DNA of 64,000 nt, taken from assembly GCA_964016885.1 (NCBI GenBank), contig OZ024740.1, positions 48,670,001 through 48,734,000 of the forward strand. The letters run 5' to 3'. A program made the position numbers and the translations under genes. Origin of the DNA: Eledone cirrhosa. Taxonomy: Eukaryota. This document shows positions 1 to 64,000 of the stretch, one piece after another. Position 1 is the first letter of the stretch. Each line of letters opens with the position of its first letter. The notes under the pieces were generated by a model. It was given only the letters and a program-made list of their open reading frames with translations. It did not search any database and was not told where the DNA came from.

Positions 1-90
1 ACATGGCTGCCATATCCAGCTGGTCAACAACCACATAGAAGCTCACTGGTTGGCTTCTGTTAGCTATCATCATTAATTTTGGTGGTTATA

Positions 91-290
91 GCTGTTGTTG
101 TCTAGTCCCAGATTTGCTCCTATCAATCAGGTCCATAATCATGACACTCTAGATCTGATTATCCAGTCTCTCTTCAATGAACAGTTTATCCAATGTGTCT
201 ATTGTAAGATAGTAGTCTGTATTTTAAGAGAGATTTAGCTGCTCTCTATAGCAGGTCAACTAACAATGCAGAAGCTTCTGTATTGACATA
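91..290 (+). repeat. dispersed ~200-bp repeat (family D); other pieces at 1-55, 7455-7530, 15583-15755, 18712-18815, and inverted at 21245-21320 and 20350-20385
   Basis: Shared head TGTTGTTT..CCC.AGGTCA...CTATGATCAAA, middle TCCAATGTGTC and tail GATTT.GCT.CT.T..AGCAGGTCAA across copies. Confidence 0.6.
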
Positions 291-7418: not shown

Positions 7419-7530
7419 GGTCTTAATTGCTAAGATATTGGTTTTGAATTCTAAGTTGTTGTTTATCCCCAGGTCAACTATGACCAAAAATATTCCCGCA
7501 GTGATTATATCAATTTTTTTTGTAGGGGTT

Positions 7531-8566: not shown

Positions 8567-9107
8567 GGGTTATCTAAGTCTTAAAAAGGAGAAGAGAGGA
8601 AAGATTAGACAATTCAATCTAGGGGGTGTGATTTGATAAAACCTTCCATCTTAATTTTCTGTAACAACTTTTCTGTTATGTTCCAAACACAATCTTTATA
8701 TGGTTGTTCAATCTTCTAGAAATAGCAGTCAAATTTCCTTCAAGTTACACCCTACTCTCTTAAAAAAGACCTTGGAAATTGTACTTAGAAACCTTAAAAA
8801 TTGTACTTAGAGGTACACTATTCCTGAAAATATCATGGAATCATTGATCTACTTGATATAGCAATGTCTAATTCGTAAAAATATTAGTTATTTTATAAAA
8901 TTCCTCCTAATTCTTGATTACTTTCAAAATTAATTGAAAGAAAAACACTGTATTTCGTTAGAAAGTAACAGTTATATAAGATTTAGTTGACTATAAGACA
9001 CCACAACACTGAATACTTTAAAATAAGTGGGTTTGTCTCAGAAAACCAGAGTCAGTCTTGGATGAGTTAGTATCAAAAGTCTTGTTTTATTTTTTTTAAA
9101 TGCTAAA

Positions 9108-9268: not shown

Positions 9269-9344
9269 TATTTATTGAAATCAATTGTTAATGAACTTTC
9301 AATGAAATTCCTGTGTAATTGTAACTTTTTCTGTTTTCTTTTAG

Positions 9345-10762: not shown

Positions 10763-10896
10763 ATAGAGAGAAACTGTTTTCTAGATTAGCTTTTATACTG
10801 AATGTCATGTAAATAGGAATTCTAAAATGTTTATAACAACACCTGACTTCACTCTGTCTTAATATCTAAACCATGATTTTATTTTCTATTTTAAAG

Positions 10897-15526: not shown

Positions 15527-15851
15527 ATTAGTAAAACAAATTTGTATTTTGTAAGGTTATAGAGGTATGAGTAATTTTAAAGTGTTGTTTCACTCCAAGT
15601 CAACTCTTTTTAATTAGAACTATGATCAAAGGTATTCCAGTCAGGGCCTGCTCTTCAGTATATTGGGGATGACATACTCCAATGTGTCCTGCCATTTTGA
15701 GGGTGGTGATGTTATTTCTAACAGATTGTACAACATTAATACTCTCTTATTGCTGGTAAGTTAAAGAAAATGTATTAGATTTAGTTTATCAATCTGCTTT
15801 AGTACTCAATTAAAACATAAAAAAAACAACATAAATACTAGTTTTATGTTT

Positions 15852-15857: not shown

Positions 15858-15908
15858 AAATACAATTGGTATAAAATTGTATATTAAAAATAAATCAGTT
15901 TATGTATT

Positions 15909-17685: not shown

Positions 17686-17702
17686 ATGTATTCTTTCTCT
17701 TT

Positions 17703-18423: not shown

Positions 18424-19061
18424 TAATAATAGCAAATTGAATATAGTTGTTGCAAAGATCCAACTTGAGTAGATGTCAAAGCAAAGCAGTAAAATTTATG
18501 GAAATTTATAATGGTATGTGTTAGCAAGAAAGTATAAAAATATCACATGGTGCCCGGAATGCTAGATTCCTCTTTCTCCATTCTGTGATCTAGTAAATAT
18601 TCTTGCTTCCACCAAACATTGTCACTATAGGCCTGAGACAGTTTAGCAGCATAGGAAAGACTAATTTGTTTTTACAGCTGGTAGTCATATAAGTATGCTT
18701 GCCTCAATCTGAGGGTGTTGTGATTTGAGGGGGATTTGGCTATTACTAACAAAGTCAAACGACCACACAGGCTGTCTATGATGTTTATCCTCAGGTCAGT
18801 CCTGATTCAGCATGTTTTTAAAAGATTCAAGCCCTGAGATAACACCTTTCAGGTTTATTTAGAACTCTCATGCATCTTTTCCTTATTTAAAAGACCAAAA
18901 GCCTTGATGACCCTTTGAAACTAGTGGGATTAATATAAGGGAATATATGATTGATCAACCATGTGGTGGTTGTTGTATAAATATGCAAACCTAAAGATTA
19001 GTGTGTTATTATAGAAAGGGTTTTCTATGGCAAAATTACAGCTGTCTTTCTTTCTCAGAAT

Positions 19062-19535: not shown

Positions 19536-19742
<207 letters not shown>

Positions 19743-20175: not shown

Positions 20176-20499
20176 AAATAATAATAATATTAAAAACAAG
20201 TAAAAAGTGATAAAATAAAAAACGAACCAAAATAGAATTAATAGTAGTGACAAAATAAGTTGACAGGATTATCACAAGTGGAACACCTTTCATCATAAGT
20301 CTACTTGGATTAGAGTTGAACTAAGGCTAAACAACAATAAGAAAAAAACTGGGATGATCGTGGCAAGAACAACTTTGATCCTAGATCGTTTGGAGTTCAT
20401 TAACAAAAACACACATAATAATAATAACAACAAAATTTTAAATTACTTAGAAGCACAAACAATGCATATGATATATGATTCTTCTCCTCCTCCTCCTCA

Positions 20500-20725: not shown

Positions 20726-21379
20726 TAATTCTTTACCATGCCAGAAATCGTAGCATTGGTTAATGGTCAACATGACTCATACACTGTCCACTTTCATGAC
20801 ATTTGTATATTATTCTGTGTATTATACATGCACCTTTGATGAGTTATAGAGTACCTGAACAATGTACACAATAATTTTCATTATTATTATTTTAAACTAA
20901 AGATGAAGTTTGAACAAGCAGAAGCGGTTGTTGACATTTCTCTGCTGAAACTAGAAGTGAAATAAAAGAAAACGACAGTGGCAGAGTCGGTCAATAACAC
21001 TGTATGCTCACCAGAGAGACATCACCAATAACTTCAGCTTATTCAAACTTCCCCCCCTGGCTTCTTTGGCCATCAACCAATGCTACAATTTCTGATGTAA
21101 TATAGAAATATTATGCCAATTCACTGATGAAAGTTTTTTAAAACTGAAATTTTTGAATAAAATACTATTTTATTTCATCATATGCATTGTCTAGGCTTCT
21201 AAGTAATTTTAAATACAAAATCAAGAGATAAAATAAAGTAAAGATGGGATGGACATGACTGGAAGATCTTTGATCATAGGTTTTCTGGATCAGGGCTGGA
21301 CTTGGGCTAAAGAATAACAATAACAACAATAATAACACAAAAAGCAAAGTAATAACAACAATAATAATGATTTCTATTA

Positions 21380-21560: not shown

Positions 21561-21916
21561 ACTCTAAAAACAACGATAATAATAATAAGTCTAAAATAAT
21601 TAGAGCTGAAAGTATTGTAAACAAGTGTATAGTGTTAAATATAACTGATTGATTAATTATGCTAATAAGTCTTACTTTATACTTATGTCTCTTTGACTCT
21701 TGTAAAAACTATTAGAATAACAGAAAAAAACACAGGAGATAATTTTTGTGTTAATGAGTAAATCATCATCATCATTTTACGTCCGCTTTTCCCTGCTTCC
21801 AAGGGTGGGACGGGTCCTATTCAGCACAGCATCTCTCTACTTGTCACAGTCCTTATGATATGATAATGACTGTGTGTGACCATGTGTATATATGTAATAA
21901 TAAGTATATGTATATA

Positions 21917-22256
21917 TCAATGTTAGTAGGTGCTATACTATAATGAATTTAATGTATGTGTCAATGTTAGTAGGTGCTATACTATAATGAATTTAATGTA
22001 TGTATCAATGTTAGTAGGTGCTATACTATAATGAATTTAATGTATCAATGTTAGTAGGTGCTATACTATAATGAATTTAATGTATGTGTCAATGTTAGTA
22101 GGTGCTATACTATAATGAATTTAATGTATGTATCAATGTTAGTAGGTGCTATACTATAATGAATTTAATGTATCAATGTTAGTAGGTGCTATACTATAAT
22201 GAATTTAATGTATGTGTCAATGTTAGTAGGTGCTATACTATAATGAATTTAATGTA
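21917..22256 (+). repeat. minisatellite, 8 units of 40-44 bp with 128-bp (44+44+40) higher-order period
   Basis: TCAATGTTAGTAGGTGCTATACTATAATGAATTTAATGTA(TGTG/TGTA/-) starting at 21917, 21961, 22005, 22045, 22089, 22133, 22173 and 22217. Confidence 0.95.
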
Positions 22257-26996: not shown

Positions 26997-27467
26997 ATTT
27001 CTACAACCTCGTTAGAGCGGCCTTTTAAGGTGCCTACATTCATGGTACCAACTCTGAAGTTTTGGATTGCGTTTGGTGGGTGGGGCACAGGGAGGGGTGA
27101 GGGGGAAATATAAATAAGCCTGTTACGAGGGACAAAACTCAGAATTTGTCAACTATTATTAATGGTCAGTACACTTCTATGAAATGTAACGTATAAATAA
27201 CATTTTCTTCTTTCCTCCCCACCCTTCGGTTCATTCATCCATATATCTATAATCGCCTCAATCCAAATCCTACTTCATAATTGCTATTCTATAATTCTGT
27301 CTCACTGTTCTAAAAAATCTTTCTCCATATCAATAATATGTATTTTGTAACTACATATAAGATATATTTGGGACTGAAATTGCCAACACTTAAAATATCA
27401 CATAGTATCTAAATGTCTAAATATATGATACACAACTGACAGACAAAACTTTAGTAATTCAACTTAC

Positions 27468-27572
27468 CTCTTCAGGTTGACCTAATCTTTTGGCAGGTAT
27501 TAAGGATTTATACATATTGAATATATCAATGTCACCATAATTAGCAGCTGCAGTCTTGGAATATATCACCCC
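27468..27572 (-). CDS. PECR: Peroxisomal trans-2-enoyl-CoA reductase, third-to-last coding exon
   Basis: Minus strand TTAAG acceptor, GTAAGT donor; 105 nt, GVIYSKTAAANYGDIDIFNMYKSLIPAKRLGQPEE, matching the vertebrate PECR GVIYSQTA...IPAKRIGVPEE segment (SDR family). Confidence 0.93.
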
Positions 27573-27776: not shown

Positions 27777-30700
27777 ATCAGAGCTGAAGATTTGCTGCTG
27801 TTTAACCTCAGTATTGTCCAGAACAAGCAGACTTATGATCAAAAGCTGAAGATTTGCAGCTGTTTAACCTCAGTATTGTCTAGAACAAGCAGACTATGAT
27901 CAAAAGTGAAGACTTGCTGCTGTTTAACCACAGTATTGTCTAAAAGAAGCAGACCTATGATCAAAAGCTGAAGACTTGCCGCTGTTTAACCCCAGTATTG
28001 TCTAGTACAAGCAGACCTATGATCAGAAGCTGAACACTTGCTGCTGTTTAACCTCAGTATTGTCCCGAAGAAGCAAACCTATGATCAAAAGCTGAAGACT
28101 TGCTGCTGTTTAACCTTAGTATTGTCCAGAACAAGCAGACCTATGATCAAAAACTGAAGACTTGCTGCTGTTTAACCTCAGTATTGTCTAGAACAAGCCG
28201 ACCTATGATCAAAAGCTGAAAACTTGCTGCTGTTTAACCTCAGTATTGTCTACAACAAGCAGACCTATGATCAAAAGCTGAATACTTGCTGCTGTTTAAC
28301 CTCAGTATTGTGCAGAAGAAGCAAACCTATGATCAAAAGCTGAAGACTTGCTGCTGTTTAACCTCAGTATTGTCTACAACAAGCAGACCTATGATCAAAA
28401 GCTGAAGACTTGCTGCTGTTTAACCTCAGTATTGTCCAGAAGAAGAAGACCTATGATAAAAAGCTGAAGACTTGCTGTTGTTTAACCTCAGTATTGTCCA
28501 GAACAAGCAGACCTATGAACAAAAGCTGAAGACTTGCTGCTGTTTAACCTCAGTATTGTCTAGAACAAGCAGACCTATGATCAAAAGCTGAAGACTTGCT
28601 GCTGTTTAACATCAGTATTGTCCAGAAGAGGCAAACCTATGATCAAAAGCTGAAGACTTGCTGCTGTTTAACCTCAGTATTGTCCAAAAGAAGCAGACCT
28701 ATGATCAAAGGCTGAAAAATTGCTGCTGTTTAACCTCAGTATTGTCCAGAAGAAGCAGACCTATGATAAAAAGCTGAAGACTTGCTGCTGTTTAACCTCA
28801 GTATTGTCTTCAACAAGCAGACCTATGATCAAAAGCCGAAGACTTGCTGCTGTTTAACCTCAGTATTGTCTAGAACAAGCAGACCTATGATCAAAAGCTG
28901 AAGACTTGCTGCTGTTTAACATCAGTATTGTCCAGAAGAGGCAGACCTATGATCAAAAGCTGAAGACTTGCTGCTGTTTAACCTCAGTATTGTCCAGAAG
29001 AAGCAGACCTATGATCAAAAGCTGAAGACTTGCTGCTGTGTAACCTCAGTATTGTCCAGAAGAGGCAGACCTATGATCAAAAGCTGAAGACTTGCTGCTG
29101 TTTAACCTCAGTATTGTCTAGAACAAGCACACCTATATGCAAAGGCTGAAGACTTGCTGCTGTTTAACCTCAGTATTGTCCAGAAGAAGCAGACCTATGA
29201 TCAAAGGCTGAAAAATTGCTGCTGTTTAACCTCAGTATTGTCCAGAAGAAGCAGACCTATGATAAAAAGCTGAAGACTTGCTGCTGTTTAACCTCAGTAT
29301 TTTCTAGAAGAAGCAGACCTATGATCAAAAGCTGAAGACTTGCTGCTGTTTAACCTCAGTATTGTCTAGAACAAGCACACCTATATGCAAAAGCTGAAGA
29401 CTTGCTGCTGTTTAACCTCAGTATTGTCCAGAAGAAGCAAACCTATGATCAAAAGCTGAAGACTTGCTGCTGTTTAACCTCAGTATTGTCTAGACCAAGC
29501 ACACCTATGATCAAAAGTTGAAGTCTTGCTGCTGTTTAACCTCAGTATTGTCTAGAACAAGCAGACCTATGAACAAAAGCTGAATACTTGCTGCTGTTTA
29601 ACCTCAGTATTGTCCAGAAGAAGCAGACCTAAGATCAAAAGCTGAAGTCTTGCAGCTGTTAAACCTCAGTATTGTCCAGAAGAAGCAGACCTATGATCAA
29701 AAGTTGAAGACTTGCTGCTGTTTAATCTCAGCATTGTCCAGAAGAAGCAGACTTATAATCAAAAGCTGAAGACTTGCTGCTGTTTAACCTCAGTATTGTT
29801 TAAAACAAGCAGACCTATGATTAAAAGCTGAAGACTTGCTGCTGTTTAATCTCAGCATTGTCCAGAAGAAGCAGACTTATAATCAAAAGCTGAAGACTTG
29901 CTGCTGTTTAACCTCAGTATTGTTTAAAACAAGCAGACCTATGATTAAAAGCTGAAGACTTGCTGCTGTTTAACCTCAGTATTGTCCAGAAGAAGCAGAC
30001 CTATGATCAAAAGCTGAAGACTTGCTGCTGTTTAACCTCAGTATTGTCTAGAACAAGCAGACCTATGATCAAAAGCTGATGACTTGTTGCTGTTTAACCT
30101 CAGTATTGTCAAGAACAAGCAGACCTATGATCAAAAGCTGAAAACTTGCTGCTGTTTAACCTCAATATTGTCCAGAACAAGCAGACCTATGATAAAAAGC
30201 TGAAGACTTGCTGCTGTTTAACATCAGTATTGTCCAGAAGAAGCAGACCTATGATCAAAAGCTGAAGACTTGCTGCTGTGTAACCTCAGTATTGTCCAGA
30301 AGAAGCAAACCTATGATCAAAAGCTGAAGACTTGCTGCTGTTTAACCTCAGTATTGTCCAGAAGAAGCAGACCTGTGATCAAAAGCTGAATAATTGCTGC
30401 TGTTTAACCTCAGTATTGTCAAGAACAAGCATACCTATGATCAAAAGCTGAAGACTTGCTGCTGTTTAACCTCAGTATTGTCTAGACCAAGCACACCTAT
30501 GATCAAAAGCTGAAGTCTTGCTGCTGTTTAACCTCAGTATTGTCTAGAACAAGCACACCTATATGCAAAAGCTGAAGACTTGCTGCTGTTTAACCTCAGT
30601 ATTGTCCAGAAGAAGCAAACCTATGATCAAAAGCTGAAGACTTGCTGCTGTTTAACCTCAGTATTGTCCAGAAGAAGCAGACCTATGATCAAAAGCTGAA

Positions 30701-33700
30701 GACTTGCTGCTGTTTAACCTCAGTATTGTCTAGAACAAGCAGACCTATGATCAAAAGCTGAAGACTCACTGCTGTTTAACCTCAGTATTGTCTAGACCAA
30801 GCACACCTATGATCAAAAGTTGAAGTCTTGCTGCTGTTTAACCTCAGTATTGTCTAGAACAAGCAGACCTATGTACAAAAGCTGAATACTTGCTGCTGTT
30901 TAACCTCAGTATTGTCCAGAAGAAGCAGACCTATGATCAAAAGCTGAAGTCTTGCAGCTGTTTAACCTCAGTATTGTCCAGAAGAAGCAGACCTATGATC
31001 AAAAGCTGAAGACTTGCTGCTGTTTAATCTCAGCATTGTCCAGAAGAAGCAGACTTATAATCAAAAGCTGAAGACTTGCTGCTGTTTAACCTCAGTATTG
31101 TTTAAAACAAGCAGACCTATGATTAAAAGCTGAAGACTTGCTGCTGTTTAACCTCAGTATTGTCTAGAACAAGGAGACCTATGATCAAAAGCTGATGACT
31201 TGTTGCTGTTTAACCTCAGTATTGTCAAGACTATCCACACCTATGATCAAAAGCTGAAGACTTGCTGCTGTTTAACCTCAATATTGTCCAGAACAAGCAG
31301 ACCTATGATAAAAAGCTGAAGACTTGCTGCTGTTTAACCTCAGTATTGTACAGAAGAAGCAGACCTATAATCAAAAGCTGAAGACTTGCTGCTGTTTAAC
31401 CTCAGTATTGTCTAGAGCAACCACACCTATGATCAAAAACTGAAGACTTGCTGCTGTTTAACCTCAGTATTGTCCAGAAGAAGCAGACCTATGATCAAAA
31501 GCTGAATACTTGCTGCTGTTTAACCTCAGTATTGTCAAGAACAAGCACACCTATGATCAAAAGCTGAAGTCTTGCTGCTGTTTAACCTCAGTATTGTCTA
31601 GAACAAGCAGACCTATGAACAAAAGCTTAAGACTTGATGCTGTTTAACCTGAGTATTGTCCAGAAGAAGCAGACCTATGATCAAAAGCTGAAGTCTTGCA
31701 GCTGTTTAACCTCAGTATTGTCCAGAAGAAGCAGATTTATGATCAAAAGCTGAAGACTTGCTGCTGTTTAACCTTAGTATTGTCCAGAAGAAGCAAACCT
31801 ATGATCAAAAGATGAAGACTTGCTGCTGTTTAACCTCAGTATTGTCTAGAGCAAGCAGACCTATAATCAAAAGCTGAAGACTTGCTGCTGTTTAACCTCA
31901 GTATTATCTAAAAAGAGCAGACCTATGATCAGAAGCTGAAGATTTCCTGCTGTTTAATCGCAGCATTGTCCAGAAGAAGCAAACCTATGATCAAAAGCTG
32001 AAGACTTGCTGCTGGTTAAACTCAGTATTGTCCAGAAGAAGCAGACCTATGATCAAAAGCTGAACACTTGCTGCTGTTTAACCTCAGTATTGTCTAGAAC
32101 AAGCAGACCTAAGATCAAAAGCTGAAGACTTGCTGCTGTTTAACATCAGTATTGTCCAGAAGAAGCAGACCTATGATTAAAAGCTGAAGACTTGCTGCTG
32201 TTTAACCTCAGTATTGTGCAGAAGAAGCAAACCTATGATCAAAAGCTGAAGACTTGCTGCTGTTTAACCTCAGTATTGTCTACAACAAGCAGACCTATGA
32301 TCAAAAGCTGAAGAGTTGCTGCTGTTTAACCTCAGTATTGTCCAGAAGAAGAAGACCTATGATAAACAGCAGCGAGTCCTTGCTGCTGTTTAACCTCAGT
32401 ATTGTCCAGAAGAAGCAGACCTATGATCAAAAGCTGAAGTCTTGCAGCTGTTTAAGCTCAGTATTGTCCAGACGAAGCAGACCTATGATCAAAAGCTGAA
32501 GACTTGCTGCTGTTTGACCTTAGTATTGTCCAGAAGAAGCAAATCTATGATCAAAAGCTGAAGACTTGCTGCTGTTTAACCTCAATATTGTCAAGAACAA
32601 GCAGACCTATGATAAAAAGCTGAAAACTTGCTGCTGCTTAATCTCATTATTGTCCAGAAGAAGCAGACCTATGATCAAAAGCTGAAGACTTGCTGCTGTT
32701 TAACCTTAGTAGTGTCCAGAAGAAGCAAATCTATGATCAAAAGCTGAAAACTTGATGCTGTTTAACCTTAGTATTGTCCAGAAGAAGCTGACCTACTATC
32801 AAAAGTTGAAGACTTGCTGCTGTTTAACCTCAGTATTGTCCAGAACAAGCAGACCTATGATCAAAAGCTGAAAAATTGCTGCTGTCTAATCACAGTATTG
32901 TCTAGACCAAGCACACCTTTGATCAAAAGCTGAAGTCTTGCTGCTGTTTAACCTCAGTATTGTGCAAAAGAAGCAAACCTATGATCAAAAGCTGAAGTCT
33001 TGCAGCTGTTTAACCTCAGTATTGTCCAGAAGAAGCAGACCTATGATCAAAAGCTGAACACTTGCTGCTGTTTAATCTCAGCATTGTCCAGAAGAAGCAG
33101 ACTTATAATCAAAAGCTGAAGACATGCTGCTGTTTAACCTCAGTATTGTTTAAAACAAGCAGACCTATGATTAAAAGGTGAAGACTTGCTGCTATTTAAC
33201 CTCAGTATTGTCTAGAACAAGCAGACCTATGATCAAAAGCTGATGACTTGTTGCTGTTTAACCTCAGTATTGTCAAGACCATCCACACCTATGATCAAAA
33301 GCTGAAGACTTGCTGCTGTTTAACCTCAATATTGTCCAGAACAAGCAGACCTATGATAAAAAGCTGAAGACTTGCTGCTGTTTAACCTCAGTATTGTACA
33401 GAAGAAGCAGACCTATAATCAAAAGCTGAAGACTTGCTGCTGTTTAACCTCAGTATTGTCTAGAACAAGCACACCTATGATCAAAAACTGAAGACTTGCT
33501 GCTGTTTAACCTCAGTATTGTCCAGAAGAAGCAGACCTATGATCAAAAGCTGAAGACTTGCTGCTGTGTAACCTCAGTATTATCCAGAAGAAGCAAACCT
33601 ATGAACAAAAGCTGAAGACTTGCTGCTGTTTAACCTCAGTATTGTCCAGAAGAAGCACACCTATGATCAAATGCTGAAGTCTTGCTGCTGTTTAACCTCA

Positions 33701-36700
33701 GTATTGTCCAGAAGAAGCAGACCTATGATCAAAAGCTGAAGTCTTGCAGCTGTTTAACCTCAGTATTGTCCAGAAGAAGTAGATTTATGATCAAAAGCTG
33801 AAGACTTGCTGCTGTTTAACCTTAGTATTGTCCAGAAGAAGCATACCTATGATCAAAAGATGAAGACTTGCTGCTGTTTAACCTCAGTATTGTCCAGAAG
33901 AAGCAGATTTATGATCAAAAGCTGAAGACTTGGTGCTGTTTAACATCAGTATTGTCTAGAGCAAGCAGACCTATGATCAAAAGCTGAAGACTTGCTGCTG
34001 TTTAACCTCAGTATTATCTAAAAAGAGCAGACCTATGATCAGAAGCTGAAGACTTCCTGCTGTTTAATCGCAGCATTGTCCAGAAGAAGCAAACCTATGA
34101 TCAAAAGCTGAAGACTTGCTGCTGGTTAAACTCAGTATTGTCCAGAAGAAGCAGAGCTATGATCAAAAGCTGAACACTTGCTGCTGTTTAACCTCAGTAT
34201 TGTCTAGAACAAGCAGACCTATGATCAAAAGCTGAAGACGTGCTGCTGTTTAACCTCAGTATTTTCTAGACCAAGCACACCTACGAGCAAAAGCTGTAGT
34301 CTTGCTGCTGTTTAACCTCAGTATTGTCTAGAACAAGCAGACCTATGAACAAAAGCTGAAGACTTGCTGCTGTTTAAGCTCAGTATTGTCCAGAAGAAGC
34401 AGACCTATGATCAAAAGCTGAAGTCTTGTAGCTGTTTAAGCTCAGTATTGTCCAGAAGAAGCAGACCTATGATCAAAAGCTGAAGACTTGCTGCTGTTTA
34501 ACCTCAGTATTGTTTACAACAAGCAGACCTATGATTAAAAGCTGAAGACTTGCTGCTGTTTAACCTCAGTATTGTGCAGAAGAAGCAAACCTGTGATCAA
34601 AAGCTGAAGACTTGCTGCTGTTTAACCTCAGTATTGTCTACAACAAGCAGACCTATCATCAAAAGCTGAAGACTTGCTGCTGTTTAACCTCAGTATTGTC
34701 CAGAAGAAGAAGACCTATGATAAACAGCTGAAGACTTGCTGTTGTTTAACCTCAGTATTGTCCAGAACAAGCAGAACTATGATCAAAAGCTGAAGACTTG
34801 CTGCTGTTTAACCTCAGTATTGTCTTCAACAAGCAGACCTATGATCAAAAGCCGAAGACTTGCTGCTGTTTAACCTCAGTATTGTCTAGAACAAGCAGAC
34901 CTATGATCAAAAGCTGAAGACTTGCTGCTGTTTAACATCAGTATTGTGCAGAAGAAGCAAACCTATGATCAAAAGCTGAAGACTTGCTGCTGTTTAACCT
35001 CAGTATTGTCTACAACAAGCAGACCTATGGTCAAAAGCTGAAGACTTGCTGCTGTTTAACCTCAGTATTGTCCAGAAGAAGAAGACTTGTGATAAACAGC
35101 AGCGCGTCCTTGCTGCTGTTTAACCTCAGTATTGTCCAGAAGAAGCAGACCTATGATCAAAAGCTGAAGTCTTGCAGCTGTTTAAGCTCAGTATTGTCCA
35201 GACGAAGCAGACCTATGATCAAAAGCTGAAGACTTGCTGCTGTTTAACCTCAATATTGTCCAGAACAAGCAGACCTATGATAAAAAGCTGAAAACTTGCT
35301 GCTGTTTAATCTCAGTATTGTCCAGAAGAAGCAGACCTATGATCAAAAGCTGAAGACTTGCTGCTGTTTAACCTTAGTATTGTCCAGAAGAAGCAAATCT
35401 ATGATCAAAAGATGAAGCCTTGATGCTGTTTAACCTTAGTATTGTCCAGAAGAAGCTGACCTACTATCAAAAGTTGAAGACTTGCTGCTGTTTAACCTCA
35501 GTATTGTTCAGAAGAAGCAGACCTATGATCAAAAGCTGAAGACTTGCTGCTGTTTAACATCAGTATTGTCCAGAACAAGCAGACCTATGATCAAAAGCTG
35601 AAGAATTGCTGCTGTCTAATCACAGTATTGTCCAGAAGAAGCAGACCTATGATGAAAAGCTGAAGTCTTGCTGCTGTTTAACCTCAGTATTGTCTAGAAG
35701 AAGCAGACCTATGATCAAAAGCTGAAGACTTGCTGCTGTTTAACCTCAGTAGTGTCTAGACCAAGCACACCTATGATCAAAAGCTGAAGTCTTGCTGCTG
35801 TTTAACCTCAGTATTGTGCAAAAGAAGCAAACCTATGATCAAAAGCTGAAGACTTGCTGCTGTTTAACCTCAGTATTGTCTAGAAGAAGCAGACCTATAT
35901 TCAAAAGCTGAAGACTTGCTGCTGTTTAACTCAGTATTGTCCATAAGAAGCAGACCTATGATCAAAAGCTGAAGACTTGCTGCTGTTTAACCTCATTATT
36001 GTCCATAAGAAGCATACCTATGATCAAAAGCTGAAGACTTGCTGCTGTTTAACCTCAGTATTGTCTAGAATATGCAGACCTATGATCAAAAGCTGAACAC
36101 TTGCTGCTGTTTAACCTCTATATTGTCCAGAACAAGCAGACCTATGATCAAAAGCTGAAGACTTGCTGCTGTTTAACCTCAGTATTGTCTAGAACAAGCA
36201 GACCTATGATCAAAAGCTGAAGACTTATTGCTGTTTAACCTCAGTATTGTCCAGAAGAAGCAAACCTCTGATCAAAAGCTGAAGACTTGCTGCTGTTTAA
36301 CCTCAGTATTGTCCAGAAGAAGCAAACCTCTGATCAAAAGCTGAAGACTTGCTGCTGTTTAACCTCAGTATTGTCTAGAAGAAGCAGACCTATGACCAAA
36401 ACCTGAAAAATTGCTGATGTTTAACCTCAGTATTGTTTAGAAGAAGCTGACCTACTATCAAAAGTTGGAGACTTGCTGCTGTTTACCCTCAGTATTGTTC
36501 AGAAGAAGCAGACCTATGATCAAAAGCTGAAGACTTGCTGCTGTTTAACATCAGTATTGTCCAGAAGAAGCAGACCTATGATCAAAAGCTGAAAAATTGC
36601 TGCTGTCTAATCTCAGTATTGTCCAGAAGAAGCAGACCTATGATCAAAAGCTGAAGACTTGCTGCTGTTTAACCTCAGTATTGTCCAGAAGAAGCAGACC

Positions 36701-39700
36701 TATGATCAAAAGCTGAAGATTTGCTGCTGTTTAACCTCAGTATTGTCTTGAACAAGCACACCTATGATCAAAAGCTGAAGACTTGCTGCTGTTTAACCTC
36801 AGTATTGTCTAGAACAAGCAGACCTATGATCAAAAGCTGAAGACTTGCTGCTGTTTAACCTCAGTATTGTGCAGAAGAAGCACACCTATGATCAAAAGCT
36901 GAAATCTTGCTGCTGTTTAACCTCAGTATTGTGCAGAAGAAGCAAACCTATGATCAAAAGCTGAAGACTTGCTGCTGTTTAACCTCAGTATTGTCCAGAA
37001 GAAGCAGACCTATGATCAAAAGCTGAAGACTTGCTGCTGTTTAACATTAGTGTTGTCTAGAACAAGCAGACCTATGATCAAAAGCTGAAGACTTATTGCT
37101 GTTTAACCTTAGTATTGTCCAGAAGAAGCAGACCTATGATCAAAAGCTGAAGACTTGCTGCTGTTTAACCTCAGTATTGTCTAGAAGAAGCAGACCTATG
37201 ATCAAAAGCTGAAGACTTGCTGCTGTTTAACCTCAGTATTGTCTAGAACAAGCAGACCTATGATCAAAAGCTGAAGACTTATTGCTGTTTAACCTCAGTA
37301 TTGTCCAGAAGAAGCAAACCTCTGATCAAAAGCTGAAGACTTGCTGCTGTTTAACCTCAGTATTGTCCAGAAGAAGCAAACCTCGGATCAAAAGCTGAAG
37401 ACTTGCTGCTGTTTAACCTCAGTATTGGCCAGAAGAAGCAGACCTATGATCAAAAGCTGAAGATTTGATGCTGTTTAACCTCAGTATTGTCTTGAACAAG
37501 CAGACCTATGATCAAAAGCTGAAGACTTACTGCTGTTTAGTCTCAGTATTGTCCAAAAGAAGCAGACCTATGATCAAAAGCTGAAGACTTGCCGCTGTTT
37601 AACCTCAGTATTGTCCAGAAGAAGCAGACCTATGATCAAAAGCTGAAGACTTGCTGCTGTTTAACCTCAGTATTGTCTAGAAGAAGCAGGCCTATGATCA
37701 GAATCTGAAGATTTGCTGCTGTTTAAACTCAGTATTGTCTAGAAGAAGCAGACCTATGACCAAAAGCTGAAGACTTGCTGCTGTTTAACCTCAGTATTGT
37801 TCAGAAGAAGCAGACCTATGATCAAAAGCTGAAGACTTGCTGCTGTTTAACATCAGTATTGTCCAGAAGAAGCAGACCTATGATCAGAATCTGAAGATTT
37901 GCTGCTGTTTAAACTCAGTATTGTCTAGAAGAAGCTGACCTACTATCAAAAGTTGAAGACTTGCTGCTGTTTAACCTCAGTATTGTTCAGAAGAAGCAGA
38001 CCTATGATCAAAAGCTGAAGACTTGCTGCTGTTTAACATCAGTATTGTCCAGAAGAAGCAGACCTATGATCAAAAGCTGAAAAATTGCTGATGTCTAATC
38101 TCAGTATTGTCCAGAAGAAGCAGACCTATGATCAAAAGCTGAAGATTTGCTGCTGTTTAACCTCAGTATTGTCTAGAAGAAGCAGACCTATGATCAAAAG
38201 TTGAAGACTTGCTGCTGTTTAACCTCAGTATTTTCTAGACCAAGCACACCTATGATCAAAAGCTGAAGTCTTGCTGCTGTTTAACCTCAGTATTGTGCGA
38301 AAGAAGCAAACCTATGATCAAAAGCTGAAGACTTGCTGCTGTTTAACCTCAGTATTGTCTAGAAGAAGCAGACCTATATTCAAAAGCTGAAGACTTAGTG
38401 CTGTTTAATCTCAGTATTGTCTAGAACAAGGAGACCTATGATCAAAATCTGAACACTTGCTACTGTTTAACCTCAGTATTGTCTAAAACAAGCAGACCTA
38501 TGATCAAAAGCTGAAGACTTTGATGCTGTTTAACCTCAATATTGTCTTGAACAAGCAGACCTATGATCAAAAGCTGAAGACTTACTGCTGTTTAGGCTCA
38601 GTATTGTCCAAAAGAAGCAGAGCTATGATCAAAAGCTGAAGACTTGCTGCTGTTTAACCTCAGTATTGTCCAGAAGAAGCAGACCTATGATCAAAAGCTG
38701 AAGATTTGCTGCTGTTTAACCTCAGTATTGTCTTGAACAAGCAGACCTATGATCAAAAGCTGAAGACTTACTGCTGTTTAGTCTCAGTATTGTCCAAAAG
38801 AAGCAGACCTATGATCAAAAGCTGAAGACTTGCTGCTGTTTAACCTCAGAATTGTCCAGAAGAAGCAGACCTATGATCAAAAGCTGAAGACTTGCTGCTG
38901 TTTAACCTCAGTATTGTCTAGAAGAAGCAGGCCTATGATCAGAATCTGAAGATTTGCTGCTGTTTAAACTCAGTATTGTCTAGAAGAAGCAGACCTATGA
39001 CCAAAAGCTGAAGACTTGCTGCTGTTTAACCTCAGTATTGTTTAGAAGAAGCTGACCTACTATCAAAAGTTGAAGACTTGCTGCTGTTTAACCTCAGTAT
39101 TGTTCAGAAGAAGCAGACCTATGATCAAAAGCTGAAAATTGCTGCTGTCTAATCTCAGTATTGTCCAGAAGAAGCAGACCTATGATCAAAAGCTGAAGAC
39201 TTGCTGCTGTTTAACCTCAGTATTGTCTAGAAGAAGCAGACCTATGATCAAAAGCTGAAGACTTGCTGCTGTTTAACCTCAGTATTTTCTAGACCAAGCA
39301 CACCTATGATCAAAAGCTGAAGTCTTGCTGCTGTTTAACCTCAGTATTGTGCAAAAGAAGCAAACCTATGATCAAAAGCTGAAGACTTGCTGCTGTTTAA
39401 TCTCAGTATTGTCTAGAAGAAGCAGACCTATATTCAAAAGCTGAAGACTTGCTGCTGTTTAATCTCAGTATTGTCTAGAACAAGGAGACCTATGATCAAA
39501 ATCTGAACACTTGCCACTGTTTAACCTCAGTATTGTCTAGAACAAGCAGACCTATGATCAAAAGCTGAAGACTTGATGCTGTTTAACCTCAGTATTGTCT
39601 AGAACAAGCAGACCTATGATCAAAATCTGAAGACTTGCTGCTGTTTAACTCAGTATTGTCCATAAGAAGCAGACCTATGATCAAAAGCTGAAGACTTGCT

Positions 39701-42700
39701 GCTGTTTAACCTCAGTATTGTCTAGAATATGCAGACCTATGATCAAAAGCTGAAGACTTGCTGCTGTTTAACCTCAGTATTGTCTAGAACAAGCAGACCT
39801 ATGATCAAAAGCTGAAGACTTATTGCTGTTTAACCTCAGTATTGTCCAGAAGAAGCAAACCTCTGATGAAAAGCTGAAGACTTGCTGCTGTTTAACCTCA
39901 GTATTGTCCAGAAGAAGCAAACCTCGGATCAAAAGCTGAAGACTTGCTGCTGTTTAACCTCAGTATTGTCCAGAAGAAGCAGACCTATGATCAAAAGCTG
40001 AAGATTTGATGCTGTTTAACCTCAGTATTGTCTTGAACAAGCAGACCTATGATCAAAAGCTGAAGACTTGCTGCTGTTTAGTCTCAGTATTGTCAAAAAG
40101 AAGCAGACCTATGATCAAAAGCTGAAGACTTGCTGCTGTTTAACCTCAGTATTGTCCAGAAGAAGCAAACCTCTGATCAAAAGCTGAAGATTTGCTGCTG
40201 TTTAACCTCAGTATTGTCCAGAAGAAGCAGACCTATGATCAAAAGCTGAAGATTTGCTGCTGTTTAACCTCAGTATTGTCTTAAACAAGCACACCTATGA
40301 TCAAAAGCTGAAGTCTTGCTGCTGTTTAACCTCAGTATTGTCTAGAAGAAGCAGACCTATGATCAAAAGCTGAAGACTTGCTGCTGTTTAACCTCAGTAT
40401 TGTCTAGAAGCAGACCTATGATCAAAAGCTGAAGACTTGCTGCTGTTTAACCTCAGTATTGTCTAGACCAAGCACACCTATGATCAAAAGCTGAAGTCTT
40501 GCTGCTGTTTAACCTCAGTATTGTGCAGAAGAAGCAAACCTATGATCAAAAGCTGAAGACTTGCTGCTGTTTAACCTCAGTATTGTCCAGAACAAGCAGA
40601 CCTATGATCAAAAGCTGAAGACTTGCTGCTGTTTAACCTCAGTATTGTCTAGAAGAAGCAGACCTATATTCAAAAGCTGAAGACTTGCTGCTGTTTAACC
40701 TCAGTATTGTCTAGAATATGCAGACCTATGATCAAAAGCTTTAGACTTGCTGCTGTTTAACCTCAATATTGTCCAGAACAAGCAGACCTATGATCAAGAG
40801 CTGAAGACTTGCTGCTGTTTATCTCAGTGTTGTCCATAAGAAGCAGACCTATGATCAAAAGCTAAAGACTTGTTGCTGTTTAACTACAGTATTGTCCATA
40901 AGAAGCAGACCTATGATCAAAAGCTGAAGACTTGCTGCTGTTTAACCTCAGTATTGTCTAGAATATGCAGACTTATGATCAAAAGCTGAAGACTTGCTGC
41001 TGTTTAACCTCAATATTGTCCAGAACAAGCAAACCTATGATCAAAAGCTGAAGACTTGCTGCTGTTTATCTCAGTATTGTCCATAAGAAGCAGACCTATG
41101 ATCAAAAGTTGAAGACTTGCTGCTGTTTAACCTTAGTATTGTCCATAAGAAGCAGACCTATGATCAAAAGCTGAAGACTTGCTGCTGTTTAACATTAGTG
41201 TTGTCTAGAAGAAGCAGACCTATGATCAAAAGCTGAAGACTTGATGCTGTTTGACTTTAGTATTGTCTAGAACAAGCAGACCTATGATCAAAAGCTGAAG
41301 ACTTGCTGCTGTTTAACCTCAATATTGTCCAGAACAAGCAGACCTATGATCAAAAGCTGAAGACTTGCTGCTGTTTAACTCAGTATTGTCCATAAGAAGC
41401 AGACCTATGATCAAAAGCTGAAGACTTGCTGCTGTTTAACCTCAGTATTGTCCATAAGAAGCAGACCTATGATCAAAAGCTGAAGACTTGCTGCTGTTTA
41501 ACCTCAGTATTGTCCAGAAGAAGCAGACCTATGATCAAAAGCTGAAGACTTGATGCTGTTTAACCTTAGTATTGTCCAGAACAAGCAGACCTATGATCAA
41601 AAGCTGAAGACTTGCTGCTGTTTAGTCTCAGTATTGTCCAAAAGAAGCAGACCTATGATCAAAAGCTGAAGACTTGCTGCTGTTTAACCTCAGTATTGTC
41701 CATAAGAAGCAAACCTCTGATCAAAAGCTGAAGACTTGCTGCTGTTTAACCTCAGTATTGTCTAGAAGAAGCAGGCCTATGATCAGAATATGAAGATTTG
41801 CTGCTGTTTAAACTCAGTATTGTCTAGAAGAAGCAGACCTATGATCAAAAGCTGAAGATTTGCTGCTGTTTAACCTCAGTATTGTCTAGAAGAAGCAGAC
41901 CTATGATCAAAAGCTGAAGACTTGCTGCTGTTTAACCTCAGTATTGTCTAGAAGAAGCAGACCTATGATCAAAAGCTGAAGACTTGCTGCTGTTTAACCT
42001 CAGTATTGTCTAGACCAAGCACACCTATGATCAAAAGCTGAAGTCTTGCTGCTGTTTAACCTCAGTATTGTGCAGAAGAAGCAAACCTATGATCAAAAGC
42101 TGAAGACTTGCTGCTGTTTAACCTCAGTATTGTCCAGAACAAGCAGACCTATGATCAAAAGCTGAAGACTTGCTGCTGTTTAACCTCAGTATTGTCTAGA
42201 AGAAGCAGACCTATATTCAAAAGCTGAAGACTTGCTGCTGTTTAACCTCAGTATTGTCTAGAATATGCAGACCTATGATCAAAAGCTTTAGACTTGCTGC
42301 TGTTTAACCTCAATATTGTCCAGAACAAGCAGACCTATGATCAAGAGCTGAAGACTTGCTGCTGTTTATCTCAGTGTTGTCCATAAGAAGCAGACCTATG
42401 ATCAAAAGCTAAAGACTTGTTGCTGTTTAACTACAGTATTGTCCATAAGAAGCAAACCTATGATCAAAAGCTGAAGACTTGCTGCTGTTTAACCTCAGTA
42501 TTGTCTAGAATATGCAGACTTATGATCAAAAGCTGAAGACTTGCTGCTGTTTAACCTCAATATTGTCCAGAACAAGCAAACCTATGATCAAAAGCTGAAG
42601 ACTTGCTGCTGTTTATCTCAGTATTGTCCATAAGAAGCAGACCTATGATCAAAAGCTGAAGACTTGCTGCTGTTTAACCTTAGTATTGTCCATAAGAAGC

Positions 42701-45700
42701 AGACCTATGATCAAAAGCTGAAGACTTGCTGCTGTTTAACATTAGTGTTGTCTAGAAGAAGCAGACCTATGATCAAAAGCTGAAGACTTGATGCTGTTTG
42801 ACTTTAGTATTGTCTAGAACAAGCAGACCTATGATCAAAAGCTGAAGACTTGCTGCTGTTTAACCTCAATATTGTCCAGAACAAGCAGACCTATGATCAA
42901 AAGCTGAAGACTTGCTGCTGTTTAACTCAGTATTGTCCATAAGAAGCAGACCTATGATCAAAAGCTGAAGACTTGCTGCTGTTTAACCTCAGTATTGTCC
43001 ATAAGAAGCAGACCTATGATCAAAAGCTGAAGACTTGCTGCTGTTTAACCTCAGTATTGTCCAGAAGAAGCAGACCTATGATCAAAAGCTGAAGACTTGA
43101 TGCTGTTTAACCTTAGTATTGTCCAGAACAAGCAGACCTATGATCAAAAGCTGAAGACTTGCTGCTGTTTAGTCTCAGTATTGTCCAAAAGAAGCAGACC
43201 TATCATCAAAAGCTGAAGACTTGCTGCTGTTTAACCTCAGTATTGTCCAGAAGAAGCAAACCTCTGATCAAAAACTGAAGACTTGCTGCTGTTTAACCTC
43301 AGTATTGTCCATAAGAAGCAGACCTATGTTCAAAAGCTAAAGATTCGCTGCTGTTTAACCTCAGTATTGTCTAGAAGAAGCAGACCTATGATCAAAAGCT
43401 GAAGACTTGCTGCTGTTTTAACCTCAGTATTGTCCAGAAGAAGCAGACCTATGATCAAAAGCTGAAAACTTGCCGCTGTTTAACCTCAGTATTGTCTTGA
43501 ACAAGCAGACCTATGATCAAAAGCTGAAGATTTGCTGCTGTTTAACCTCATTATTGTCCAAAACAAGCAGACCTATGATCAAAAGTTGAAGACTTGCTGC
43601 TGTTTAACATCAGTATTGTCCAGAAGAAGCAGACCTATGATCAAAAGCTGAAGATTTGCTGCTGTTTAACCTCAGTATTGTCTAGAAGAAGCAGACCTAT
43701 GATCAAAAGGTGAAGACTTGCTGCTGTTTAACCTCAGTATTGTCCAGAAGAAGCAGACCTATGATCAAAAGCTGAAGACTTGCTGCTGTTTAACCTCAGT
43801 ATTGTCTAGACCAAGCACACCTATGATCAAAAGCTGAAGTCTTGCTGCTGTTTAACCTCAGTATTATGCAGAAGAAGCAAATCTATGATCAAAAGCTGAA
43901 GACTTGCTGCTGTTTAACCTCAGTATTGTCCAGAACAAGCAGACCTATGATCAAAAGCTGAAGATTTGCTGCTGTTTAACCTTAGTATTGTCTAGAACAA
44001 GCACACCTATATTCAAAAGCTGAAGACGTGCTGCTGTTTAATCTCGGTATTGTCTAGAACAAGCAGACCTATGATCAAAATCTAAAGACTTGCTACTGTT
44101 TAATCTCAGTATTGTCCAGAAGAAGCAGACCTATGATCAAAAGCTGAAGACTTGCTGCTGTTTAACCTCAATATAGTCCAGAACAAGCAGACCTATGATC
44201 AAAAGCTGAAGACTTGCTGCTGTTTAACTCAGTATTGTCCATAAGAAGCAGACCTATGATCAAAAGCTGAAGACTTGCTGCTGTTTAACCTCAGTATTGT
44301 CTAGAATATGCAGACCTATGATCAAAAGCTGAAGACTTGCTACTGTTTAACCTCAATATTGTCCAGAACAAGCAGACCTATGATCAAAAGCTGAAGACTT
44401 ATTGCTGTTTAACCTCAGTATTGTCCAGAAGAAGCAAACCTCTGATCAAAAGCTGAAGACTTGCTGCTGTTTAACCTCAGTATTGACCAGAAGAAGCAAA
44501 CCTCGGATCAAAAGCTGAAGACTTGCTGCTGTTTAACCTCAGTATTGTCCAGAAGAAGCAGACCTATGATCAAAAGCTGAAGATTTGCTGCTGTTTAACC
44601 TCAGTATTGTCTTGAACAAGCAGACCTATGATCAAAAGCTGAAGACCTTACTGCTGTTTAGTCTCAGTATTGTCCAAAAGAAGCAGACCTATGATCAAAA
44701 GCTGAAGACTTGCTGCTGTTTAACCTCAGTATTGTCCATAAGAAGCAAACCTCTGATCAAAAGCTGAAGACTTGCTGCTGTTTAACCTCAGTATTGTCCA
44801 CAAGAAGCAGACCTATGATCAAAAGCTGAAGATTTGCTGCTGTTTAACCTCAGTATTGTCTTGAACAAGCACACCTATGATCAAAAGCTGAAGACTTGCT
44901 GCTGTTTAACCTCAATATTGTCCAGAACAAGCAGACCTATGATCAAAAGCTGAAGACTTGCTGCTGTTTATCTCAGTATTGTCCATAAGAAGCAGACCTA
45001 TGATCAAAAGCTGAAGACTTGCTGCTGTTTAACCTCAGTATTGTCCAGAAGAAGCAAACCTCTGATCAAAAGCTGAAGACTTGCTGCTGTTTAACCTCAG
45101 AATTGTCCAGAAGAAGCAGACCTATGTTCAAAAGCTAAAGATTCGCTGCTGTTTAACCTCAGTATTGTCTACAAGAAGCAGACCTATGATCAAAAGCTGA
45201 AGACTTGCTGCTGTTTTAACCTCAGTATTGTCCAGAAGAAGCAGACCTATGATCAAAAGCTGAAAACTTGCTGCTGTTTAACCTCAGTATTGTCTTGAAC
45301 AAGCAGACCTATGATCAAAAGCTGAAGATTTGCTGCTGTTTAACCTCATTATTGTTCAAAACAAGCAGACCTATGATCAAAAGTTGAAGACTTGCTGCCG
45401 TTTAACATCAGTATTGTCCAGAAGAAGCAGACCTATGATCAAAAGCTGAAAACTTGCTGCTGTTTAACCTCAGTATTGTCTAGAACAAGCAGACCTATGA
45501 TCAAAAGCTGAAGACTTGCTGCTGTTTAACCTCTATATTGTCCAGAACAAGCAGACCTATGATCAAAATCTGAAGACTTGCTGCTGTTTAACATTAGTGT
45601 TGTCTAGAAGAAGCAGACCTATGATCAAAAGCTGAAGACTTGATGCTGTTTGAGTTCAGTATTGTCTAGAACAAGCAGACCTATGATCAAAAGCTGAAGA

Positions 45701-48700
45701 CTTATTACTGTTTAACCTTAGTATTGTCCAGAAGAAGCAAACCTCTGATCAAAAGCTGAAGACTTGCTGCTGTTTAACCTCAGTATTGTCCAGAAGAAGC
45801 AGACCTATGATCAAAAGCTGAAGATTTGCTGCTGTCTAATCTCAGTATTGTCCAGAAGAAGCAGACCTATGATCAAAAGCTGAAGATTTGCTGCTGTTTA
45901 ACCTCAGTATTGTCTAGAAGAAGCAGACCTATGATCAAAAGCTGAAGACTTGCTGCTGTTTAACCTCAGTATTGTCCAGAAGAAGCAGACCTATGATCAA
46001 AAGCTGAAGACTTGCTGCTGTTTAACCTCAGTATTGTCTAGACCAAGCACACCTATGGTCAAAAGCTGAAGTCTTGCTGCTGTTTAACCTCAGTATTGTG
46101 CAGAAGAAGCAAATCTATGATCAAAAGCTGAAGACTTGCTGCTGTTTAATCTCAGTATTGTCTAGAACAAGCAGACCTATGATCAAAATCTAAAGACTTG
46201 CTACTGTTTAACCTCAGTATTGTCCAGAAGAAGCAGACCTATGATCAAAAGCTGAAGACTTGCTGCTGTTTAACCTCAATATAGTCCAGAACAAGCAGAC
46301 CTATGATCAAAAGCTGAAGACTTGCTGCTGTTTAACTCAGTATTGTCCATAAGAAGCAGACCTATGATCAAAAGCTGAAGACTTGCTGCTGTTTAACCTC
46401 AGTATTGTCTAGAATATGCAGACCTATGATCAAAAGCTGAAGACTTGCTGCTGTTTAACCTCAATATTGTCCAGAACAAGCAGACCTATGATCAAAAGCT
46501 GAAGACTTATTGCTGTTTAACCTCAGTATTGTCCAGAAGAAGCAAACCTCTGATCAAAAGCTGAAGACTTGCTGCTTTTTAACCTCAGTATTGTCCAGAA
46601 GAAGCAAACCTCGGATCAAAAGCTGAAGACTTGCTGCTGTTTAACCTCAGTATTGTCCAGAAGAAGCAGACCTATGATCAAAAGCTGAAGATTTGCTGCT
46701 GTTTAACCTCAGTATTGTCTTGAACAAGCAGACCTATGATCAAAAGCTGAAGACCTTACTGCTGTTTAGTCTCAGTATTGTCCAAAAGAAGCAGACCTAT
46801 GATCAAAAGCTGAAGACTTGCTGCTGTTTAACCTCAGTATTGTCCATAAGAAGCAAACCTCTGATCAAAAGCTGAAGACTTGCTGCTGTTTAACCTCAGT
46901 ATTGTCCAGAAGAAGCAGACCTATGATCAAAAGCTGAAGATTTGCTGCTGTTTAACCTCAGTATTGTCTTGAACAAGCACACCTATGATCAAAAGCTGAA
47001 GACTTGCTGCTGTTTAACCTCAGTATTGTCTAGACGAAGCAGGCCTATGATCAGAATCTGAAGATTTGCTGCTGTTTAAACTCAGTATTGTCTAGAAGAA
47101 GCAGACCTATGACCAAAACCTGAAAAATTGCTGATGTTTAACCTCAGTATTGTTTAGAAGAAGCTGACCTACTATCAAAAGTTGAAGACTTGCTGCTGTT
47201 TAACCTCAGTATTGTCCAGAAGAAGCAGACCTATGATCAAAAGCTGAAGACTTGATGCTGTTTAACCTCAGTATTGTCTAGAACAAGCAGACCTATGATC
47301 AAAATCTGAAGACTTGCTGCTGTTTAACTCAGTATTGTCCATAAGAAGCAGACCTATGATCAAAAGCTGAAGACTTGCTGCTGTTTAACCTCAGTATTGT
47401 CTAGAATATGCAGACCTATGATCAAAAGCTGAAGACTTGCTGCTGTTTAACCTCAGTATTGTCTAGAACAAGCAGACCTATGATCAAAAGCTGAAGACTT
47501 ATTGCTGTTTAACCTCAGTATTGTCCAGAAGAAGCAAACCTCTGATGAAAAGCTGAAGACTTGCTGCTGTTTAACCTCAGTATTGTCCAGAAGAAGCAAA
47601 CCTCGGATCAAAAGCTGAAGACTTGCTGCTGTTTAACCTCAGTATTGTCCAGAAGAAGCAGACCTATGATCAAAAGCTGAAGATTTGATGCTGTTTAACC
47701 TCAGTATTGTCTTGAACAAGCAGACCTATGATCAAAAGCTGAAGACTTGCTGCTGTTTAGTCTCAGTATTGTCAAAAAGAAGCAGACCTATGATCAAAAG
47801 CTGAAGACTTGCTGCTGTTTAACCTCAGTATTGTCCAGAAGAAGCAAACCTCTGATCAAAGGCTGAAGACTTGCTGCTGTTTAACCTCAGTATTGTCCAG
47901 CAGAAGCAGACCTATGATCAAAAGCTGAAGATTTGCTGCTGTTTAACCTCAGTATTGTCTTAAACAAGCACACCTATGATCAAAAGCTGAAGTCTTGCTG
48001 CTGTTTAACCTCAGTATTGTCTAGAAGAAGCAGGCCTATGATCAAAAGCTGAAGACTTGCTGCTGTTTAACCTCAGTATTGTCTAGAAGAAGCAGACCTA
48101 TGATCAAAAGCTGAAGACTTGCTGCTGTTTAACCTCAGTATTGTCTAGAAGCAGACCTATGATCAAAAGCTGAAGACTTGCTGCTGTTTAACCTCAGTAT
48201 TGTCTAGACCAAGCACACCTATGATCAAAAGCTGAAGTCTTGCTGCTGTTTAACCTCAGTATTGTGCAGAAGAAGCAAACCTATGATCAAAAGCTGAAGA
48301 CTTGCTGCTGTTTAACCTCAGTATTGTCCAGAACAAGCAGACCTATGATCAAAAGCTGAAGACTTGCTGCTGTTTAACCTCAGTATTGTCTAGAAGAAGC
48401 AGACCTATATTCAAAAGCTGAAGACTTGCTGCTGTTTAACCTCAGTATTGTCTAGAATATGCAGACCTATGATCAAAAGCTTTAGACTTGCTGCTGTTTA
48501 ACCTCAATATTGTCCAGAATAAGCAGACCTATGATCAAGAGCTGAAGACTTGCTGCTGTTTATCTCAGTGTTGTCCATAAGAAGCAGACCTATGATCAAA
48601 AGCTAAAGACTTGTTGCTGTTTAACTACAGTATTGTCCATAAGAAGCAGACCTATGATCAAAAGCTGAAGACTTGCTGCTGTTTAACCTCAGTATTGTCT

Positions 48701-63700: not shown

Positions 63701-64000
63701 ATTCAAAAGCTGAAGACGTGCTGCTGTTTAATCTCGGTATTGTCTAGAACAAGCAGACCTATGATCAAAATCTAAAGACTTGCTACTGTTTAATCTCAGT
63801 ATTGTCCAGAAGAAGCAGACCTATGATCAAAAGCTGAAGACTTGCTGCTGTTTAACCTCAATATAGTCCAGAACAAGCAGACCTATGATCAAAAGCTGAA
63901 GACTTGCTGCTGTTTAACTCAGTATTGTCCATAAGAAGCAGACCTATGATCAAAAGCTGAAGACTTGCTGCTGTTTAACCTCAGTATTGTCTAGAATATG
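27777..64000 (+). repeat. 62-bp satellite DNA array, ~580 head-to-tail copies, continuing past the window end
   Basis: Consensus GACCTATGATCAAAAGCTGAAGACTTGCTGCTGTTTAACCTCAGTATTGTC(C/T)AGAA(G/C)AAGCA; period 62 (e.g. 36821 to 36883); no TE insertions or orientation switches seen. Confidence 0.98.

Follow-up and report, generated by a model that had tools for sequence, protein, structure and literature searches.

A 62-bp satellite in a single intron, probably grown from the tail end of a dispersed short element

The stretch of DNA analysed here (the window; 64,000 nucleotides, G000:C1:48,670,001-48,734,000 in a 3.0-Gb genome) was extended by 100 kb on each side, and places reached in this way are given as window-extended positions. 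It contains part of a minus-strand gene resembling that of peroxisomal trans-2-enoyl-CoA reductase (PECR), and one intron of this gene holds a long array of a 62-bp repeat:

19602..19712, minus strand: next PECR-like exon after the one at 27466; best PDB match 1yxm (peroxisomal trans-2-enoyl-CoA reductase, E 3.3e-10), weak match to adh_short_C2
27466..27572, minus strand: PECR-like exon directly downstream (in the sense of the gene) of the array-bearing intron
27782..64000, no strand assigned: 62-bp satellite array, 585 copies inside the window, running onward to window-extended 92,576 (G000:C1:48,762,576)
near 113.1, 114.9, 132.3 and 136.4 kb (window-extended), minus strand: further exons of the short-chain dehydrogenase, beyond the array

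The array-bearing intron extends from about 27,573 to window-extended 113,025 (GT..AG, ~85 kb), and the array takes up 65 of these ~85 kb. A contig of 1,107 nt from run X4 contains the 27.5-kb exon without differences, linked on either side with the neighbouring exon (19.7 kb and 113 kb). Since the flanking exons are joined, a spliced form exists and the intron can be spliced out; run X4 carries the same organism label, and no RNA run was among those listed as carrying the sequence. The array is most likely without a function of its own, and tolerated because the intron is spliced out. On the plus strand, at 1330-11800, a multi-exon gene converges on the PECR-like gene; its exons contain a weak TIR_2 match (3896-4042, E 0.003, below the cut-off) and HEAT repeats (10899-11117, E 1e-11), and it is possible that it encodes a TIR plus HEAT protein. 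The window also holds a 44/40-bp minisatellite with an exact 128-bp super-period (21908-22256), and a decayed element of Penelope-like appearance has two related copies, one on either side of the array (window 15908-17700 and window-extended 94,090-96,000).

Tandem Repeats Finder reported a single array from 27782 to the end of the window. As a whole it comprises 1,046 monomers in 64.8 kb, 28.6 kb of which lie beyond the window, and it is located 48.7 Mb from the start of a 443-Mb contig. The 1,046 monomers represent 335 distinct sequences, with a mean divergence of 5.3% from the majority monomer. Edge decay was rejected because the divergence is level along the array (4.8-5.9%), and a fixed higher-order repeat was rejected as well, there being no dominant lag up to 40 monomers and only irregular block duplications. 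Runs of identical monomers, up to 26 long, recur at distant lags, and the proportion of monomers with an identical twin is 75-97%, but 37-39% in the first 150. When an 18-mer taken from the monomer was looked up in the genome, each of its 518 exact matches fell inside the array; the 62-bp unit is thus confined to one locus, which answers the question of locus-specificity raised in an earlier, sequence-only note on this DNA. A search of Rfam gave no credible match for the monomer and no ribozyme at the start of the array.

A second 18-mer, common to the monomer and to sequences elsewhere, has 301 exact matches in the genome, two of them in the array. Twenty-eight dispersed loci carrying it align as an element of ~220 bp, which we call family D. 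Thirty-six near-full copies have 56-76% identity to the consensus (mean 67%), and in 59 random 10-kb stretches D accounts for 30 hits and 3,541 bp, or 0.6%, compared with 0 hits in the reversed control. Extrapolated from this 0.6%, the copy number would be of the order of 100,000, unevenly spread. D is older than the array, since the monomers differ by ~5% while the D copies have 67% identity, although it must be noted that homogenisation can make arrays look younger. The window contains the following D sequences:

3..287, minus strand: full D copy (87-287), then, head-to-tail, the start of another (3-62); found with the D profile
7454..7521, minus strand: D 3' fragment (E 3e-8)
8689..8840, plus strand: D copy, body only (E 1e-21)
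15581..15752, minus strand: near-full D copy with an internal deletion (E 1e-20)
18718..18813, minus strand: head-to-tail D fragments; found with the D profile
20262..20387, plus strand: two adjoining D 3' fragments, second-best match to the monomer and absent from the earlier note
21237..21326, plus strand: D copy, 3' part, the best single match to the monomer in the window
27785..27791, no strand assigned: 7-bp spacer foreign to D, found in every monomer and, beside unique DNA, at the array's left edge
27792..27846, minus strand: D-derived 55 bp of the first monomer, the reverse complement of the last ~55 bp of D (model positions 174-228)

The D-derived 55 bp cover the stem-loop region of D and its CAA-like tail, which is CAG-like in the array. 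To compare the two without circularity, a terminal-segment consensus was made from 22 D copies chosen by their body only: a body-only profile (21 of the 28 seed loci) was run against 0.8 Mb and gave 49 hits, 22 of which reached the terminal side. This consensus and the monomer share 38 of 55 positions (69%) without gaps. The earlier note had staked its proposal on a significant alignment to family D relative to shuffled controls, and the score was reached by 0 of 5,000 dinucleotide shuffles. With the GTT-like tail removed the count was still 0/5,000, the best shuffle coming close (38.5 vs 39.5). Searched against the family-D profile with nhmmer, the monomer gave E 1.2e-4, and the best of 2,000 shuffles 2.5. 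Its score of 50.5 is like that of a typical genuine D copy (16.5-74.5 for the 22 copies). The match of motif order and spacing claimed earlier over ~54 of the 62 bp needs a correction: it consists of two good blocks flanking a middle of ~18 bp where the match to D is poor.

Relatives of the monomer had been pointed out at 91, 7455, 15583, 18783 and 21265-21320 and described as heads of the family. All five places are hit by the D profile, as are the head-to-tail copies noted at 1-290 and 18712-18815, and what was called a head is probably the 3' tail seen from the opposite strand. Compared singly with the monomer, three are significant, namely the copy at 21265-21320 (35/52 identities without gaps over 21255-21330, 0/2,000 shuffles) and those at 18775 (5/2,000 shuffles) and 85 (22/2,000), and two are not significant by themselves (15575, 106/2,000; 7450, 198/2,000). 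These two failures, the modest 69% identity and the shuffle that came within one point once the tail was removed could be taken to mean that chance, or the GTT-like tail alone, explains the resemblance. We give this next to no credit: no shuffle reached the score with or without the tail, the nhmmer values are far apart, the alignment runs over 55 bp without a gap, the three best monomer matches within the unique 27.7 kb are all D copies, and at the level of the family the test with the body-selected consensus refutes it. The derivation of the satellite from the terminal ~60 bp of a common transposable element is therefore supported, with a profile that was not built from the satellite, and the unit can be described more closely as ~55 bp of the D end plus 7 bp of flank. 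Contigs of D copies from runs X1 and X5 overlap the monomer and then pass into D-body-like sequence (loose ends at 27841 and 27846).

The two ends of the array differ. At the left edge the 7-bp spacer, likely the flank of the founding D copy, stands beside unique DNA, and the 2-3 bases that precede it fit both the flank and D; this is a possible microhomology, too short to tell from chance. A duplication that took in both the terminal part of a D copy and the DNA beside it would be expected to leave a spacer in this position, although the left edge could also be that of a trimmed array instead of the original flank. A contig from run X1 crosses the left junction exactly; X1 may be the assembly's own sample, so it is not independent, and its monomer contigs have a depth thousands of times that of the flank, which is no measure of copy number. 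At the right end the array breaks off in mid-monomer and adjoins a 5'-truncated LINE fragment, presumably RTE-like judging by its motifs, whose closest local relative is 95% identical. Pfam had no family for this fragment, no target duplication was seen around it, and no D body was hit at E<1 within 7.4 kb past the array.

We think it probable, at roughly three chances in four, that this single-locus intronic satellite, with a unit made of the last 55 bp of D plus 7 bp from beside it, originated where it now lies, a local tandem duplication having spanned the end of one decayed D copy, and that it then expanded. It is the match of the other seven bases to the left flank that points to duplication in place. 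The first duplication would have been a slip or repair event at the DNA level where flank and D share 2-3 bp; the rise to ~1,050 copies and their ~95% uniformity could then be due to unequal exchange or slippage, and a later LINE insertion or deletion may have removed the remainder of the parent D copy at the right end. Short intermediates of this kind exist elsewhere in the genome. Dimers to 5-mers of D motifs were found at C3:309.15M, C7:10.51M, C14:10.175M and C14:16.21M, and some of them continue into the D body: at C7:10.51M and C14:10.175M 4-5 copies are followed by it, and at C14:16.21M a dimer runs into it, with a spacer that equals the flank and a shared AAAG.

Alternatively, the first dimer might have been produced during transposition, by a tail-only (5'-truncated) D copy or by two D tails placed in tandem. 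Tail-only copies do exist (22 were listed), 15 of 26 close D pairs are head-to-tail and 2 are opposed, the D body is not attached at the 62-bp array, and several tail units (this array, C3:309.15M, C7:10.51M, C14:16.21M) break near model position 174-175. The shared break points, however, were partly set by the search patterns used, and D copies show no excess of 5'-truncation, as many of them reaching the end of the model at their start as at their finish (66 and 66 of 128). Moreover, body segments, which tail priming would not duplicate, form arrays equally readily, and the repetition of the left flank in the spacer is directly explained by DNA duplication. We consider a seed made by transposition unlikely.

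The nature of D itself bears on a further possibility, that D is a non-autonomous rolling-circle element of the Helitron/Helentron type, whose own replication would have produced the tandem units. Such elements have subterminal inverted repeats, a 3' hairpin and fixed terminal bases. D is short, non-coding and dispersed, with sharp ends on both sides: conservation ceases sharply at the 5' end (53 copies), and upstream of it 75 flanks share no sequence except preceding D tails. These ends and the head-to-tail bias would suit a rolling-circle element, as would the target duplications, which show no excess over the control (mean longest shared word 5.3 vs 5.3 in 34 old copies), and the head, for which no tRNA, 5S or 7SL sequence was detected, loose ARAGORN calls being present on the flanks. 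Old copies, however, lose their target duplications anyway, and the head may have decayed or been lost. The CAA-like simple repeat in which D ends, after a 3' stem-loop (z -2.1 for the 3' 62 nt), and the better folding of the strand that has this tail last (z -3.3 and -2.1 at the two ends, compared with -0.9 and -1.0 on the reverse strand) fit an RNA-borne element. In addition, the tandem units derive from many parts of D with differing spacers and not from one internal core. Taken together, a rolling-circle origin appears improbable.

We describe family D as SINE-like and leave it unclassified. Rfam gave no match and no ribozyme over D at seven loci, and the search for a partner LINE was negative in ~1 Mb of the 3 Gb, the upstream flanks of the 22 tail-only hits sharing nothing at the junction. 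Octopus SINEs are named in PMC4824008, and nothing in the portion of that paper available to us identifies family D. Three D copies (bigL_61692, bigL_99905, L096_8240) and the first unit of L153 have lost 14-17 bp in the same part of the 3' stem-loop region. A palindromic word of 5-6 bp occurs twice in this region; recurrent slippage deletion is a possible explanation. In the satellite monomer the folding of D is lost, with no folding excess (z about 0).

It is also conceivable that the satellite came first or from elsewhere, its monomers having spread from an older satellite family or been captured by D. Run X5, which carries another organism label, yielded contigs with head-to-tail monomers, 92-98% alike, which correspond to window positions 27782-27885; they have a depth of 2-10, like the dispersed D contigs of the same run, and no flank. 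X5 may come from a relative whose array is short, or its monomers may be trace DNA. We find a satellite-first origin very improbable, given that the unit is confined to one locus in the genome, that D copies are far more diverged than the monomers, and that unrelated arrays cover differing parts of D.

These other arrays were studied by testing 20 tandem loci against the D profile. Seventeen matched at E <= 0.0015 where shuffles did not, and three failed. The 17 are the 62-bp array and 16 others (eight from the tail, eight from the body), mostly with unrelated units, ranging from 2 to 2,183 copies and up to 100 kb. It must be noted that 15 of the 16 were found by means of D motifs, which inflates their profile scores, and only that at C1:320.0M was sampled blind. 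Two of the arrays found with D motifs were the following:

G000:C1:36,967,485-37,068,004 (L197-L207): 46 bp x 2,183 array, 100.5 kb, from the D tail end, 11.7 Mb from the 62-bp array
C21:9.636M: 56 bp x 28 array, found by D-motif search

The score of the 46-bp array against D was reached by 0/5,000 shuffles, the best of them scoring 40.5 vs 42, and a D body fragment lies ~290 bp past its end (E 1e-8). Among the candidates that did not hold, a 59-bp satellite of at least 74 kb at C4:207.02-207.09M (L225-L230) had no D profile match despite a shared 15-20-bp word, C15:18.75M was marginal (E 0.04), C3:146.2M had no tandem call, and C21:9.93M looked unrelated.

The idea that the D tail is a hotspot for array formation was rejected, as searches with body motifs yielded tandem loci in equal or greater number. 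A body motif had 199 tandem matches at no fewer than 43 loci, a tail motif searched with the same spacing 40 matches at 7 loci, and the counts of the single motifs were 7 and 2 in 0.8 Mb for body and tail, respectively. The terminal origin of the 62-bp unit is therefore not special; tandem arrays have been seeded from the D body no less often. The tandem pattern of a mid-body motif had 7,802 matches. A 63-65-bp unit with this motif was seen at C2:0.75M, 22.29M, 220.59M and 273.05M, at C4:83.06-83.31M and at further loci, and the number of matches means that this one D-derived unit may have turned into a spreading, multi-locus satellite. Near-identical D-body units are also common to distant pairs of loci (C1:217.04M and C4:235.29M; C15:9.6M and C19:10.1M), which suggests the transfer of arrays between chromosomes.

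Blind sampling gives some impression of how frequent such arrays are. Four of 60 blind 10-kb probes (L110, L080, L093, L076) were wholly satellite, with units of 26, 49, 25 and 79 bp, and several percent of the genome may consist of large arrays with short units. One of the 60 probes met the 79-bp array at C1:320.0M, which matches D positions 156-228; for the other three large arrays no clear dispersed source was found in ~1 Mb (0, 0 and 1 weak hit). One in four blind large arrays compared with a genome share of 0.6% is no more than suggestive of D seeding arrays beyond its share. We put forward only tentatively, as something rather doubtful, that family D, a headless ~220-bp element, is a nursery of satellites beyond its share of ~0.6%, having given rise independently to dozens of arrays, each at one locus and between a dimer and a 100-kb block in size (one of the four large arrays from the 60 blind probes among them), aided by head-to-tail landing, and with run X5 perhaps holding the 62-bp array at an early stage of roughly ten copies. 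If this were true, the birth of satellites from a known ancestor could be followed in one genome as a replicated series.

The present array is a clean case, with good support, of a process already known, for which our searches found no report in this lineage, and we saw no sign of a new mechanism or function. Its value is rather as material, there being many arrays grown independently from one ancestral element. One can ask which first duplications go on to expand, how fast a unit diverges from its source, and how much satellite the intron of a working gene tolerates, the figure here being 65 of 85 kb.

It remains to compare the array with known systems. Ribozyme-bearing satellites and retrozymes are short elements, often head-to-tail and structured on one strand. 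The 62-bp array is unlike them, since Rfam found no ribozyme at seven D loci or at the array start and the monomer has a folding z of about 0. It agrees with transposon-derived satellites: the array is long, uniform and head-to-tail, its match to D is beyond chance, and the dispersed parent is older. According to a review (PMC12692304), satellites derive from SINEs, LINEs, Helitrons and other elements; the word 'cephalopod' is absent from that review, and in the openly accessible literature we found no report of such satellites in octopods.

The closest known case is that of the SINE-derived satellites sSat1-3 of squamate reptiles (Vassetzky et al. 2023, PMC10702118), as they are described in the portion of that paper available to us. 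As in the sSats, the unit is part of an old, dispersed short element, with extra bases sometimes included, there are many independent origins from differing parts of the parent, and short heterogeneous loci occur beside long uniform ones (sSats reach ~950 and >1,200 units, ~94% alike). In some sSat loci the terminal unit continues into the parent; this is not so at the 62-bp array, but it was observed at C7:10.51M, C14:10.175M and C14:16.21M, and partly at C1:36.97M. The parents of the sSats, the Squam elements, are tRNA-derived SINEs, whereas D is without a detectable head. The major sSats occupy many loci with a subtelomeric leaning, whereas the 62-bp unit has one intronic locus where the parent body is lost; this locus is not subtelomeric (48.7 Mb into the 443-Mb contig), and one locus cannot show a preference. 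The lineage, too, differs from squamate reptiles, the repeat landscape of the genome suggesting an octopod mollusc. As the array lacks both an attached parent and a subtelomeric position, and D is no more than SINE-like, we file it under transposon-derived satellites and not as an sSat; as such it is the product of a known route and an ordinary mechanism.
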